NCBI GenBank assembly: GCA_963702425.1
Contig: CAVPCQ010000038.1
Coordinates: 4,992 to 68,991 of the forward strand
From: an uncultured Acidobacteriota bacterium
GTDB taxonomy: Bacteria; Acidobacteriota; Polarisedimenticolia; J045
DNA length: 64,000 nt
Direction of reading: 5' to 3'
Part shown: piece by piece, positions 22,095 to 57,572 of the stretch
Position numbering within the stretch: position 1 is the first letter of the stretch
Layout: each line of letters begins with the position of its first letter
Notes under the pieces: model-generated
What the model was told of the DNA's origin: nothing
Databases searched by the model: none
What the model saw: the letters and a program-made list of their open reading frames with translations, nothing else
Program-made: the position numbers and the translations under genes

Positions 22095-22120
22095 GTAGGG
22101 GCCGGCCTCCGTGCCGGCCC
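22095..22120. repeat. REP-like hairpin element, single copy (variant CTCCGT loop)
   Basis: GTAGGGGCCGGCCTCCGTGCCGGCCC has the stem GGCCGGC/GCCGGCC. It belongs to the same family as the elements at 35685-35798 and 44607-44724. Confidence 0.7.
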
Positions 22121-32531: not shown

Positions 32532-32557
32532 CGGCTGCCGATACAGGGGGCCCGTCC

Positions 32558-32787
32558 GAATGCACATCCGGCGACAGAGGACCCCCTCGAATGCACACAT
32601 CGTCCCCAGCGACGGCGTGATGACTCCCACCTTGAGCCCAAGTTCACCGCAAAGAGTCGCCGTGCGCCACCGCCGACCGGGTTCCGGTCGCGATCTTCCT
32701 GCCGGCGAGGGCCTGCTCAGCGCGGCGGTGTGCGTTCGAGGGGGTCCTCTGTCGCCGGATGTGCATTCGAGGGGGTCCTCTGTCGCC
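32558..32787. repeat. 40-nt inverted repeat (39/40 match) flanking a 131-nt spacer; the right arm is partly duplicated
   Basis: The left arm at 32558-32597 is GAATGCACATCCGGCGACAGAGGACCCCCTCGAATGCACA. Its reverse complement matches 32729-32768 (TGTGCGTTCGAGGGGGTCCTCTGTCGCCGGATGTGCATTC). The unit TGTGC(G/A)TTCGAGGGGGTCCTCTGTCGCC occurs twice on the right (32729-32756, 32760-32787). Confidence 0.85.
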
Positions 32788-32972
32788 ACGCCGACATTCG
32801 GCTGTGAACGCTGTCGCGGTCTCTCGGCCCGGCCGCGGATCGTCGGGTCGGCCGGGGCCCCGCTTCGACCTGTCGCCGCCACGTCGCATGCCGGCGCCGA
32901 CCACGGCGCCGGCCTCCGTGCCGCGTCGGTCCGGAACGTCGCGACCGGCAAGGGAGCGGGCCGCTCCCGGGC

Positions 32973-32978
32973 TAGAAT
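32973..32978 (+). promoter_or_regulatory. candidate -10 element TAGAAT (context GCTAGAATCC) upstream of the TonB-C gene
   Basis: It lies 39 nt upstream of GTG 33017. The same TAGAATCC octamer lies 47 nt upstream of the S9 peptidase gene (60057). No convincing -35 was seen. Confidence 0.25.
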
Positions 32979-33016
32979 CCGGACGGACCGGTTCCCGTCC
33001 CCGACGGAGTCCCATC

Positions 33017-33896
33017 GTGCGCCGCATGCTCCAGTTGCTGTCATCAGGGTGCCTCGCCGCACTCGCGGGCGGGTGCGCCGCCGCCGATTCGCCGGCAGCC
33101 GAGGAATGGGCGCGCTGGATGCTGCGCGGGCTGCCCGGGGTCTCGGTCGCGTGCACCCCGAAGCTGGAAAGCGACCCAGCCATGACCGTCCACTGCGTCG
33201 ACCTGGAGATGCCGTGGAACGAGTTTCGGCGGGAGTGGGAGTCCGCCCTCCGGTCGGCCGGCCGGTCGTTTCCCGACACGGGGTGGCTCGATGAGGGGAA
33301 GCTGAAGCGCCGGCGCTACATCGTCTTCGACGTGCCCGTCGACGTTTTTCGAGACTCCGCGGGCTCGGGCCTGGTGATCGCGGTCCCGCGCTTCTTCCTG
33401 GATTGCGACGAGGTGAACTGGGGCGATGTGATCGACCTCGACCAGGACACCTCGGGGGAGATCACGCGCCCGCAGCTCGAGCACCGGGTCGAGGCCGTCT
33501 ACCCGGAACGCGAGCGCCGGGCCAGGCGCCTAGTGTCACGTAACCGAAGTCACGCTAACGCCGGGGCGGTCTGGCAAGCCGATGGCTGCGTTGCTCCTCC
33601 TTGCTGTACGGTTCAGTACAGCGTCGTCGTCGCGCCTTGCCCTCGGCTCACCATCCTCGCCCTGGCATTAACCTGACTTCGGTTACGTGACACTAGGCAG
33701 GGTCTGGATGATGGGACTGATCCGCACGGATGGGCACGTCGCGCCGCTCTGCATCAAGTCGTCGGAGGGCGCCACGCCCGCGATGAACTCCGCCGCGCTG
33801 CGCGCGCTCGCGCAGTGGCGCTACGCGCCGGCGCTGCGGGACGGCCAGCCGATCGCGGTGCGATTCGTGGTGGCCATCAGTTTCTCCGTCCGCTAG
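33017..33896 (+). pseudogene. lipoprotein with TonB C-terminal domain, split by a MITE insertion
   Basis: GTG 33017 (GGAG upstream); lipobox LLSSGC / ALAGGC. The upstream part ends ...EITRPQLEHRVEAVYPERERRARR, then reads into the MITE and stops at 33676. Track ORF 33687..33896 (..GRVWMMGLIRTDGHVAPLCIKSSEG..AALRALAQWRYAPALRDGQPIAVRFVVAISF) is the rest of a TonB_C fold. Removing 163 bp rejoins the two frames. Confidence 0.8.
33530..33696. mobile_element. MITE copy 1 (159-bp core flanked by CTAG on both sides)
   Basis: Perfect 23-nt terminal inverted repeats: CTAG-TGTCACGTAACCGAAGTCA ... TGACTTCGGTTACGTGACA-CTAG. There is a central hairpin, GCTGTACggttcaGTACAGC. The element is too short to encode a transposase. 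A second copy at 55685-55851 differs at two positions (33553 and 33555, C vs T). Confidence 0.85.
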
Positions 33897-35684: not shown

Positions 35685-35798
35685 AGGGGCCGGCCTTCGT
35701 GCCGGACCGACCGACGACGGGCAACCAGCGGGCCGGCACAGAGGCCGGCCCGACCGACGACAGGCAACCTGCGGGCCGGCACAGAGGCCGGCCCCTAC
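35685..35798. repeat. REP-like hairpin array (three hairpins; the two right-hand units have a 43-bp period)
   Basis: GGCCGGCcttcgtGCCGGAC sits at 35688-35707 in the opposite orientation. GGCCGGCACAGAGGCCGGCC then occurs at 35731-35750 and 35774-35793, each preceded by CGACCGACGAC(G/A)GGCAACC(A/T)GC. The array ends ...GGCCGGCCCCTAC at 35798, 8 nt before the stop of the M14 gene. Confidence 0.8.
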
Positions 35799-44606: not shown

Positions 44607-44724
44607 GTAGGGGCCGGCCTCTGTGCCGGCCCGAGGAATGCCGGCCTCTGTGCCGGCCCGAGGAATGCCGGCCTCTGTGCCGGCCCGAAACCTCGTGCGG
44701 GCCGGCACAGAGGCCGGCCCCTAC
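44607..44724. repeat. REP-like hairpin array: 27-bp unit x3 plus one inverted copy (candidate terminator/REP cluster)
   Basis: GCCGGCCTCTGTGCCGGCCCGAGGAAT occurs at 44613-44639 and 44640-44666, with a truncated third copy from 44667. GTAGGGGCCGGCCTCTGTGCCGGCCC (44607-44632) is the exact reverse complement of 44699-44724. The array starts 14 nt after the flotillin stop. Confidence 0.85.
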
Positions 44725-53012: not shown

Positions 53013-55688
53013 GTGGAGTCGAGCCGGCCATCTGCGATCGGCCTGAGCGTCGTCGTCGCCGTGCTGCTCACGACGGCCCCCGGCGTGCGCGGCGCGCGCG
53101 AGTTGACGCTCGACGAACGGGTCGATGCCCGGTGGGCGATCGAACAGGTCTTCTGGAACCACCGCATCTGGCCGGCGGAGAATCCCGGACCGAAGCCCTC
53201 CCTCGAGCAGGTTGTTTCCAGGCTCGCGCTCCGAGCGCGGGTGGAGCGCGAGCTCGAAGCCTTCGCCGCCGCCGAACGGTCGATCGGCCGCGCGATCACG
53301 GCCGACGAACTCCAAGACGAGGTCGCGCGCATGACCCGCGACAGCCGGGATCCGGAGATGCTGCGCGAGCTCTTCCGCGCCCTGAATGACGACCCCGAGC
53401 TGATCGCGGAGTGCCTGGCGCGCCCGCTCGTCGCGGATCGGCTGCGGCAAGGCGCGGCCCCCGCCGGATCGAAACTCCTGCCGCCGCTGGAGACGAAGCG
53501 GCGCCCGTGGTCGTTCTGCGACTACGACACCTGGCGCCAGATGACACCGTCCCCGCTCGCGCCGCGCAGTCACCACAGTGCGGTTTGGACCGGGAGCGAG
53601 ATGATCGTCTGGGGCGGTGCAGAGCCCGGGGCCACGCAGACGGGGGCGATCTACACCCCCGCGATGGGTTACTGGTTCTTCACGTCGATCACTCGCTTTA
53701 CGCCCGAGCCGCGCCTCGAGCACACCGCGGTCTGGACCGGGAGGGAGATGATCGTCTGGGGCGGCCGCGACCCCGCGATGGGCGAGGGCCAGTGGCTCCA
53801 GACCGGCGGCCGGTTCGATCCCGCCACCGGTGCGTGGACTCCGGTCTCCGTCCCGGCCGAAGCGCCTTCGGCACGCGCGCGCCACACCGCCGTCTGGACG
53901 GGGAGCGAGATGGTGATCTGGGGCGGCGAGGACCGAGCGGGCTCGCTCGACAGCGGCGGCCGCTACGACCCGGCGACGGAGCGCTGGCGCGGGGTGGGGC
54001 AGGCCGGATCGTTCATGCCCGGGCCGCGCAGCGGACACACGGCGACCTGGACCGGGGGCGAGCTGCTCATTTGGGGCGGCGAGTACAAGGACGCGTCCGG
54101 CGGCCGTCGCGCCCTGGGAGACGGCGCACGCTGGTCAGCGCTCGCGGACGCCTGGACTCCCGTCACGGCGGCCGGCGCGCCGAGTCCCAGGCGCGGACAC
54201 ACCGCGATCTGGACCGGAAGCGAGTTGATCGTCTGGGGCGGCCTCGATGATTCTGGAAACCCACCGACCGACGCGGGTGCGCGCTACGACCCGGCCACCG
54301 ACGGCTGGCGCGCCGTCAGCGCCGTCGACGCGCCATCCACCCGGGAGCTCCACAGCGCCGTGTGGACGGACCAGGAGATGGTCGTCTGGGGTGGCCTCGA
54401 TACGACCGGAGCGCCGCCGCTCGACGGCGGGGGCCGTTACGACCCGAAGAACGACCGCTGGGGCGCAACCACGGCGGATCGTGCGCCGGGCGGCCGGGCG
54501 CATCACACGGTCGTGTGGAACATCGGGGAGATGATCGTCTGGGGCGGGAGCGGGGGCGTCGCAGGCAGTCTGCTGGGCGATGGCGGCCGATACTGCGCGC
54601 AATGCCCGTACTGGTTCCCGGATGCCGACGGCGACGGGTTCGGTCTCTACGGAACCGGCGTGATCGCGTGCGAGCAGCCGGCTGCATATGTGGACAACTT
54701 CGACGACTGTGACGATACCGACGCGAGCATTCACCCGGGTGCAGAAGAGACCTGCAACCTGAAGGACGACAACTGCAGGGAGGGCGCGGACGAGGGCGTC
54801 ATGACACGGTTCTACCGGGACCGGGACGGCGACGGGTTCGGGCGAGCGGATGACGGCTGGTCCGCCTGCACCGCTCCCGAAGGCTACGTCGCGGACGCGA
54901 CCGACTGCGACGACTCGCGCGCGGCCGTCCATCCCGGAGCCGAGGAGCGGTTCCTGCTGGACAACTGCGATGACGGTCTCGACAACGACTGCGACGGCCT
55001 GTCCGACGACAGGGAGCCGGACTGCGCCAGCAGCATCACCAAGCCGGACTTCCCGTGGGCGCCGCCGCTGATCTACGCCGGACGTCCCGCCGAGCTGCGC
55101 ACCGGCGGTGCGCGATGCGATCTTGGCGATCCGGTCGAGTACCAGTTCCGATGGGGAGACGGCGCACTCTCCGAGTGGACCACCACCGGCCGAGCGAGCC
55201 ACACCTGGGTGGAGCCAGGCGAGTACGCCGTGCCGGCCCGGGCACGCTGCGGCGGTCACCCGGAGATCCTGTCGCCTTGGTCGACACCCGTCAGGATCCG
55301 CGTCAGCGCGCAACCCACGAGCGGGCCCGATCTCGTCGCCAGCCCGCGTTCCGTTCGGCAGGACTGCAAGCGGCGGAGCGGGGTCGAGGTCTGTACGCTC
55401 AAGGCCCGGATCGCGGTGCGCAACACCGGCGATGATCCCACTTGGTCGAGCCGGCTCGATTGGCTCGTCTCAGATGCGTTGGTCTGGGAGGAAGGCGACA
55501 AGCCCCTCTCCTCGGTCTTCGTGCCGGAGCTGAGGCCAGGCCGGACAAAGACCGTCAAGATCCTGTACACAATCCCCGGCGGGACGAGCGGGCGCGGAAA
55601 GTACCTCCTGGGACGATTGGACCCGGCCAACCGCATCCGGGAGCGGGACGAGCTGAACAACGACTTCGCGGTCGCGATTGGGCCCTAG
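53013..55688 (+). CDS. secreted Kelch-repeat protein with Cys-rich putative metal-binding repeats and PKD/CARDB-like C-terminal domains
   Basis: 891 aa from GTG 53013 with a signal peptide. At least seven repeats of H(T/S)AVWTG.E(M/L)(I/V)(V/I)WGG are present. Two to three D.DGDG(F)G.......C....(Y)V....DCDD.....HPGAEE motifs follow, then beta-sandwich domains. The stop TAG 55686-55688 lies in the MITE-flanking CTAG. Confidence 0.75.
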   Translation: MESSRPSAIGLSVVVAVLLTTAPGVRGARELTLDERVDARWAIEQVFWNHRIWPAENPGPKPSLEQVVSRLALRARVERELEAFAAAERSIGRAITADELQDEVARMTRDSRDPEMLRELFRALNDDPELIAECLARPLVADRLRQGAAPAGSKLLPPLETKRRPWSFCDYDTWRQMTPSPLAPRSHHSAVWTGSEMIVWGGAEPGATQTGAIYTPAMGYWFFTSITRFTPEPRLEHTAVWTGREMIVWGGRDPAMGEGQWLQTGGRFDPATGAWTPVSVPAEAPSARARHTAVWTGSEMVIWGGEDRAGSLDSGGRYDPATERWRGVGQAGSFMPGPRSGHTATWTGGELLIWGGEYKDASGGRRALGDGARWSALADAWTPVTAAGAPSPRRGHTAIWTGSELIVWGGLDDSGNPPTDAGARYDPATDGWRAVSAVDAPSTRELHSAVWTDQEMVVWGGLDTTGAPPLDGGGRYDPKNDRWGATTADRAPGGRAHHTVVWNIGEMIVWGGSGGVAGSLLGDGGRYCAQCPYWFPDADGDGFGLYGTGVIACEQPAAYVDNFDDCDDTDASIHPGAEETCNLKDDNCREGADEGVMTRFYRDRDGDGFGRADDGWSACTAPEGYVADATDCDDSRAAVHPGAEERFLLDNCDDGLDNDCDGLSDDREPDCASSITKPDFPWAPPLIYAGRPAELRTGGARCDLGDPVEYQFRWGDGALSEWTTTGRASHTWVEPGEYAVPARARCGGHPEILSPWSTPVRIRVSAQPTSGPDLVASPRSVRQDCKRRSGVEVCTLKARIAVRNTGDDPTWSSRLDWLVSDALVWEEGDKPLSSVFVPELRPGRTKTVKILYTIPGGTSGRGKYLLGRLDPANRIRERDELNNDFAVAIGP

Positions 55689-55847
55689 TGTCACGTAACC
55701 GAAGTCATGTTAACGCCGGGGCGGTCTGGCAAGCCGATGGCTGCGTTGCTCCTCCTTGCTGTACGGTTCAGTACAGCGTCGTCGTCGCGCCTTGCCCTCG
55801 GCTCACCATCCTCGCCCTGGCATTAACCTGACTTCGGTTACGTGACA

Positions 55848-55851
<4 letters not shown>
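55685..55851. mobile_element. MITE copy 2 (same orientation as copy 1)
   Basis: It is identical to 33530-33696 except at 55708 and 55710 (T instead of C). It is flanked by CTAG at 55685-55688 and 55848-55851, which hold the stop codons of the two convergent neighbouring genes. Confidence 0.85.

Positions 55852-57572
<1,721 letters not shown>

Follow-up and report, generated by a model that had tools for sequence, protein, structure and literature searches.

The window, by which we mean the whole 64-kb stretch of DNA that was analysed, contains two near-identical copies of a short palindromic repeat. One of them (copy 1) is lodged inside a gene for a TonB_C lipoprotein, and the other (copy 2) occupies precisely the interval from the TAG stop codon of a Kelch/MopE/PKD/CARDB protein gene to that of a convergent gene for an APA-type amino-acid permease. 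Genes in the window that were regarded as real were picked by codon-position GC. The features of the two loci are the following:

33017..33533, + strand: 5' portion of the TonB_C lipoprotein gene split by copy 1, starting with GTG at 33017 or ATG at 33026
33530-33696, 167 bp: MITE copy 1 segment (CTAG + 159-bp core + CTAG), as read from the sequence
33530..33533, no strand: left CTAG flank of copy 1, the target, with TA at 33531-33532 as the presumed duplicated dinucleotide
33534..33692, + strand: copy 1 core, 159 bp, with terminal inverted repeats (TIRs) at 33534-33552 and 33674-33692 and a central hairpin at 33603-33622
33693..33696, no strand: right CTAG flank of copy 1, from the sequence as read and the alignment of the two copies
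33697..33896, + strand: 3' portion of the split TonB_C gene, whose reading frame joins that of the 5' portion when 33534-33696 is deleted
53013-55688, + strand: Kelch/MopE/PKD/CARDB protein gene, with its TAG stop in the left CTAG of copy 2
55685-55851, 167 bp: MITE copy 2 segment (CTAG + 159-bp core + CTAG), as read from the sequence
55685..55688, no strand: left CTAG flank of copy 2, its TAG being the stop codon of the gene at 53013-55688 (+)
55689..55847, + strand: copy 2 core, 159 bp, with TIRs at 55689-55707 and 55829-55847 and a central hairpin at 55758-55777
55848..55851, no strand: right CTAG flank of copy 2, its CTA being the minus-strand TAG stop of the gene at 55848-57572 (-)
55848-57572, - strand: APA-type amino-acid permease gene, with its TAG stop in the right CTAG of copy 2

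An initial annotation, made from the sequence of the window, had described the two segments as identical apart from two C/T differences, and alignment confirmed this: copy 1 has C and copy 2 has T at 33553/55708 and 33555/55710, and these are the only differences. The sequence also reads CTAG at both ends of each segment, as had been stated, and the length of 163 bp first given for the element proved to be that of the 159-bp core plus one CTAG. Beyond the outer CTAGs the similarity breaks off sharply and the flanks are unrelated, again in agreement with the earlier description. In both copies the core starts with TGTCACGTAACCGAAGTCA and ends with the reverse complement of TGTCACGTAACCGAAGTCA. 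This 19-nt terminus occurs exactly four times in the 64-kb window, at both ends of both copies (~0.01 occurrences expected by chance), and neither a 19-mer scan nor low-stringency BLAST found a third copy or a remnant in the window. The TIR is perfect over 19 nt, and the inverted repeat reaches 39 nt with 92% complementarity in copy 2 and 39-41 nt with 90% in copy 1; the inverted repeat previously noted in copy 2 is thus real, but the 29 nt allotted to it fall short. The two halves of the MITE are mutually inverted across ~54 nt, and the central hairpin reported for each copy could be placed at the positions listed above, with the sequence GCTGTAC-ggttca-GTACAGC in both. As RNA, the full 167 nt folds into a single long hairpin of -106 kcal/mol (z = -14 versus shuffles). 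The GC content of the core is 60%, against 72% for the window. With a core of 159 bp the element has no capacity to encode a transposase, and similarity to the partner transposase described below was found nowhere in the 64-kb window.

Copy 1 interrupts the TonB_C lipoprotein gene at a point where the + frame reads CTA at 33530. The unrepaired open reading frame from 33017 enters the MITE and ends at TGA 33674-33676, gaining 46 MITE-encoded residues, and the disrupted protein has no TonB_C domain. In silico deletion of 33534-33696 (163 bp) restores an open reading frame of 235 aa with a complete TonB_C domain that spans the junction (PF03544, 51.9 bits, profile positions 3-78 of 79). The insertion of copy 1 is plainly deleterious. 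The stop codon of the TonB_C gene lies in another CTAG (33893-33896), which in the window is single and unoccupied. There is also a consequence for annotation, as the database protein P0123 is the window's own disrupted product (33017-33676), 46 MITE-encoded residues included; its record is an artefact in which a truncated TonB_C lipoprotein is joined to a translation of the MITE.

Upstream of the TonB_C gene, positions 32543-32598 and 32728-32783 form a separate 56-nt inverted repeat with 89% complementarity, which is conserved on L033, a contig from a relative discussed below. In each arm a unit of ~27 nt, which ends in GAATGCACA, occurs twice in direct orientation, and the region 32535-32795 folds as DNA at -92 kcal/mol (z = -9). 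This inverted repeat may represent a further small element, mobile or regulatory in nature. The window also has a GC-rich, REP-like palindrome, GGGGCCGGCCTCTGTGCCGGCCC, at 22098-22120, 35686-35795 (three copies) and 44610-44721 (four copies), giving eight copies with three or fewer mismatches where none was expected; they cluster as inverted pairs in intergenic DNA. The same palindrome is found downstream of the TonB_C orthologue on the contig L036 (1043-1088).

No promoter or terminator motif, U-tracts included, was found around copy 2. The orthologues of the adjoining permease on L035 (91% nt identity) and L038 (84% aa identity) were considered as a source of an empty site for copy 2, and proved uninformative, with a different C-terminus, stop codon and neighbour. 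Source records name the permease homologues as Acidobacteriota, Thermoanaerobaculia or Pyrinomonadaceae, and the host is likely Acidobacteriota-like. The gene on the other side of copy 2 contains seven tandem Kelch-repeat units (53554-54558) of ~153 nt each, which are 60-79% identical to the first.

Further copies were sought with a 19-mer scan of GTDB species representatives, metagenomes and viral contigs. Among the GTDB species representatives, the MITE was found only in the MAG 'uncultured Acidobacteriota MFD02979.bin.1.81', which holds two full copies (L002 and L004) that are 96-99% identical and lie at loci unrelated to the window. The same MAG has a 39-bp deletion derivative (L005, 2770-2808), CTAG-TGTCACGTAACC|TGACTTCGGTTACGTGACA-CTAG, that lost its interior by deletion between two TAACC microhomologies and retains a perfect 12-bp stem. 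Together with the copy on L033, five full-length copies are available (two in the window, L002, L004 and L033), all exactly 167 bp with their CTAGs and each at a different locus; counting the deletion derivative, this makes six loci in at least three assemblies. The five full copies differ at 0-5 positions and their 19-nt TIRs are invariant. Both copies in the window have T95/A121 and the other copies G95/G121, a shared pattern that points to amplification in this lineage. Among the five copies no compensatory changes were seen in the hairpin, the variation being too small to test for them. The viral contigs gave no match to the 19-mer, a search of a plasmid collection with the MITE in distant mode gave none either, and no Rfam covariance model matched anywhere in the window at the gathering score. 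Single 19-mer matches on L001, L003 and L007-L010 were dismissed as chance, being isolated in unrelated, lower-GC DNA with neither a second end nor a transposase.

A search with the reconstructed TonB_C protein retrieved P0121, an intact 235-aa orthologue that is 98% identical, carries PF03544 and is encoded on L033 and L034. Both contigs have ~98% DNA identity to window positions 32718-33896, and both lack the MITE at the copy 1 site (site A). L033 has the same MITE (97% identical, in the opposite orientation) in the CTAG that holds the TonB_C stop codon (site B), a site that is empty in the window. The window carries the MITE at site A, where L033, L034 and the outgroup L036 have none, and L033 carries it at site B, where the window has none. 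The two sites are ~200 to 360 bp apart and reciprocally filled and empty in genomes that are ~2% diverged, which is direct evidence of MITE mobility. The initial annotation had argued for recent mobility and had suggested a comparison with empty sites in related genomes; an insertion polymorphism between genomes that are ~98% identical bears out the former, and the latter comparison gave the empty site of copy 1 in L033 and L034 as well as the reciprocal filled site in L033. Past the right junction of the L033 insertion the sequence is unlike that of the window, and this junction may be a product of assembly through the repeat; a MEGAHIT contig made with k = 141 could be chimeric at a repeat of 159 bp. 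In L034 a third, different sequence, TACTACTGTGTCATAAGCTTGACG, follows the CTAG stop of the TonB_C gene (990-1018), after which the contig ends; it is possibly a further element inserted at this CTAG hot spot.

Across the copy 1 site (window 33511-33702, L033 794-820), the window reads CTAGGCAGG, L033 and L034 read GCAGGCAAG, and L036 reads GCCGGCAAG. The window sequence reconstructs as CGC-CTA-GGC-AGG, and the empty sites contain no CTAG, reading CGC-GCA-GGC-AAG in L033 and L034 and GCC-GGC-AAG in L036 (84% aa identity), where the codon is likewise Ala (GCC). With GCAG at the empty site of the close relatives and Ala in the outgroup, the CTAG would be derived in the window lineage, through two neighbouring base changes that preceded the insertion, or else the site changed by another route. 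Substitutions are concentrated here, four of the nine differences in the 708-nt TonB_C gene falling within 27 nt of the insertion. We take this as a CTAG that was created by mutation and then hit, although the site is not fully explained; mutagenesis coupled to insertion or repair is a less likely source of the substitution cluster.

The metagenome part of the 19-mer scan led to a possible source of the transposition machinery. On L006 the 19-mer forms the right terminus of an element with a 351-aa open reading frame, the TAA stop codon of which lies inside the repeat. The encoded protein matches NF033545, 'IS630 family transposase', with 227 bits (cut-off 100), and the Pfam families HTH_32, HTH_29 and DDE_3. 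The initial annotation had proposed a search of the genome for a transposase gene bounded by ends of this type; the L006 element, an autonomous relative of the IS630 family with one matching end, comes from a metagenome contig. The left end of the MITE agrees with the right end of the L006 IS at 25/25 nt, or at 30/33 with one 3-nt gap, and its right end agrees with the same IS end at 24/25. Homologues of the L006 transposase, P0001 (94% identical), P0002 (82%) and the cluster member P0255, are encoded on L011, L012 and L037. Each of these contigs has a full-length IS of ~1.13 kb (~1132 bp) with CTAG...CTAG borders and a transposase 82-94% identical to that of L006; in L011 and L037 the IS is embedded in DNA of 72-75% GC. 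The ends of these full-length ISs are IRL TGTCGCGTAC(C/G)AGAAGT... and IRR TGTCGCGTAACCGAAGTCATGTTAA. Both MITE ends are closer to IRR than to IRL (alignment scores of 45-51 versus 20-27), the similarity between MITE and IS is confined to the terminal 25-33 nt, and the MITE interior shows none above shuffled controls to the subterminal regions of the IS. With both ends IRR-like and an unrelated interior, the MITE is an IRR-IRR derivative of the foldback type and not a simple internal deletion of the IS. No IS was found in MFD02979.bin.1.81 by exact 19-mer, a search that the ends of L011, L012 and L037, being 1-2 bases off, would escape. Among annotated transposases in the plasmid collection, the nearest are <50% identical, all bearing the name 'IS630 family transposase'.

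The target site is shared by the MITE and these ISs. Two related ISs with ~70% identical transposases were collected at 20 loci, where the flanks vary, with some left or right flanks recurring, and CTAG is found on both sides in every case. Altogether, CTAG borders both sides of 26/26 complete elements (three close ISs, the 20 related IS loci and three further MITE copies) and of the deletion derivative L005, and the IS clade occurs at CTAG only, in 23/23 complete IS loci examined. The right flank of the L006 element, CTGG, is the sole exception to TA within CTAG among the MITE and IS copies. On three contigs (L023, L025 and L027, at ~1480-1560), related IS630-family elements and one end of another IS630-like element meet at a CTAG that both use, with a further IS630-type transposase gene close by; this arrangement is a tandem or nested insertion at CTAG.

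The initial annotation had called the target duplication ambiguous, and this still holds with every element flanked by CTAG: the tetranucleotide is palindromic, so that duplication of TA by an element with ends G...C and duplication of all four bases give the same sequence, and an empty site is equally uninformative. Of the two options put forward there, the IS630/Tc1-mariner style is supported by the family of the matching IS and the IS5-family style is disfavoured. If the MITE instead belonged to an IS5- or IS701-type family with duplication of a 4-bp target, CTAG (YTAR), it would leave the CTAG seen on both sides of every copy, and it would have a precedent in MITEPsy1, which is related to IS5 and is flanked by a duplication of CTAG or YTAA (PMC3189936). 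We nevertheless regard this as improbable, since the only elements found with matching ends encode an IS630-family transposase (NF033545, 227 bits, DDE_3) and not DDE_Tnp_1, the whole IS630-type clade is CTAG-flanked, and both CTAG specificity and TA duplication are documented for IS630 in a reference cited in PMC2170065. The title of that reference (Tenzen & Ohtsubo 1991) gives the target of IS630 as TA in 5'-CTAG-3'. ISY100 likewise duplicates TA, and 30 bp of each of its ends is enough for transposition (PMC2170065), and IS870 and ISMt1 are CTAG-specific (PMC13630536). From membership in the IS630 family and by analogy with these elements, we infer that the duplicated unit is TA rather than CTAG.

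CTAG is rare in the window: base composition predicts 162 occurrences and a Markov estimate 70, but 12 are present, a depletion of ~6- to 13-fold. MITE flanks account for 4 of the 12, and 4 of the 8 free CTAGs are stop codons of long open reading frames with high third-position GC. At other loci, namely in L033, L004, L002, L011 and L012, the CTAG beside the element supplies the stop codon for a plausible gene. The bias of insertions towards gene ends follows from the fact that the remaining CTAGs are mostly stop codons of the form C+TAG.

Taken together, these results are best accounted for by a 159-bp non-autonomous MITE of the IS630/Tc1-mariner superfamily, with ends copied from the right inverted repeat of an IS and mobilised in trans into CTAG, a reading to which we give a probability of about 0.88. 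The initial interpretation of the repeat as a MITE is upheld by the unrelated flanks, the further copies, the empty site and the matching IS630-family IS. The termini would derive from the right inverted repeat of a ~1.13-kb IS630-family IS, and the transposase of the IS (351 aa, with N-terminal helix-turn-helix domains and a DDE_3 catalytic domain) would be supplied in trans. By analogy with ISY100, the helix-turn-helix domains are expected to bind the terminal 25-30 bp of the MITE, double-strand cuts would excise it, and it would be pasted into the TA of a 5'-CTAG-3' site with duplication of the TA. At gene ends, as at copy 2, the duplication would re-create a stop codon on each side, and an occasional landing inside a gene causes disruption, as seen at copy 1 in the TonB_C lipoprotein gene. 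The MITE is probably still active today.

The high stability of the hairpin (-106 kcal/mol, z = -14) and the position of copy 2 exactly between convergent stop codons would also suit an element that began as a MITE, has lost its mobility and is retained because it serves the host, for instance as a bidirectional terminator or mRNA stabiliser between convergent genes. Such a role has little in its favour elsewhere, as the insertion of copy 1 breaks a gene, genomes that are 98% identical differ in their insertions, the element has neither a U-tract or terminator motif nor an Rfam match, and the few substitutions among the five copies are not compensatory; we consider it hardly more than a slim chance. 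That the repeats are a segmental duplication or an assembly artefact might be argued from the window alone, with its two copies only, but can be given practically no credence, since identity stops exactly at the CTAGs and the same 167-bp unit stands at different loci in independent ENA, Logan and GTDB MAG assemblies, in accordance with the view of a mobile element taken in the initial annotation.

Beyond the mobile MITE itself, a more speculative and rather doubtful proposal is that the CTAG-specific IS630 clade and its MITE follow a 'safe-site' strategy in CTAG-depleted, high-GC genomes. Some CTAG stops are conceivably shared by two convergent genes, and an insertion that splits such a site and regenerates both stops would be nearly harmless. 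A hairpin with a stem of ~80 bp that is placed between genes in this way might later be recruited to block transcription in both directions.

The MITE described here is well documented but unremarkable; it belongs to an established type of mobile element and leaves the current understanding of transposition unchanged. It adds a pair of MITE and IS630 partner from uncultured, Acidobacteriota-like, high-GC soil bacteria, the mobile elements of which are little described, and it offers a clean natural insertion polymorphism in which a stretch of 400 bp holds sites with and without the element, a disrupted gene and an insertion at a gene end. It also shows how target specificity and tetranucleotide depletion steer insertions to stop codons.

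The closest analogue among known systems is RUP of Streptococcus pneumoniae, a MITE of the IS630-Spn1 type that is thought to be mobilised by IS630-Spn1 (PMC2229807). Both are small (RUP 107 bp) and non-coding, with TIRs that match an IS630-family IS and insertion at TA, and the high similarity of RUP copies has likewise been taken as a sign of recent mobility (PMC2229807). RUP differs in having a low-GC Firmicutes host, ~100 copies and a short perfect TIR, whereas the present MITE is 159 bp long with palindromic halves, strictly at CTAG and in few copies in a 72% GC, Acidobacteriota-like genome; the two share no sequence similarity. The closest mechanistic relatives are IS630, IS870 and ISMt1 with their CTAG targets, and ISY100 for the biochemistry. 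According to the accounts of these elements given in PMC2170065 and PMC13630536, IS630 (Shigella sonnei), IS870 and ISMt1 resemble the partner IS in the transposase family (NF033545), in the use of TA in 5'-CTAG-3' and in that the transposase gene stops at or within the right end. All three are autonomous ISs, unlike the MITE, and the partner IS has its TAA stop inside IRR, whereas the stop of IS870 is supplied by the target. ISY100 of Synechocystis serves as the mechanistic model, as its transposase alone carries out cut-and-paste transposition and its N-terminal helix-turn-helix domains bind the ~24-bp TIR (PMC2170065). The duplicated TA and the transposition of mini-elements with 30 bp per end (PMC2170065) are in keeping with the mechanism proposed here, but ISY100 uses TA with little further context and the present clade is found at CTAG only. 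MITEPsy1 of Pseudomonas syringae is also small and CTAG-flanked (PMC3189936), but differs in its 4-bp duplication and its relation to the IS5-family ISPsy2, whereas the present MITE matches an IS630-family IS.
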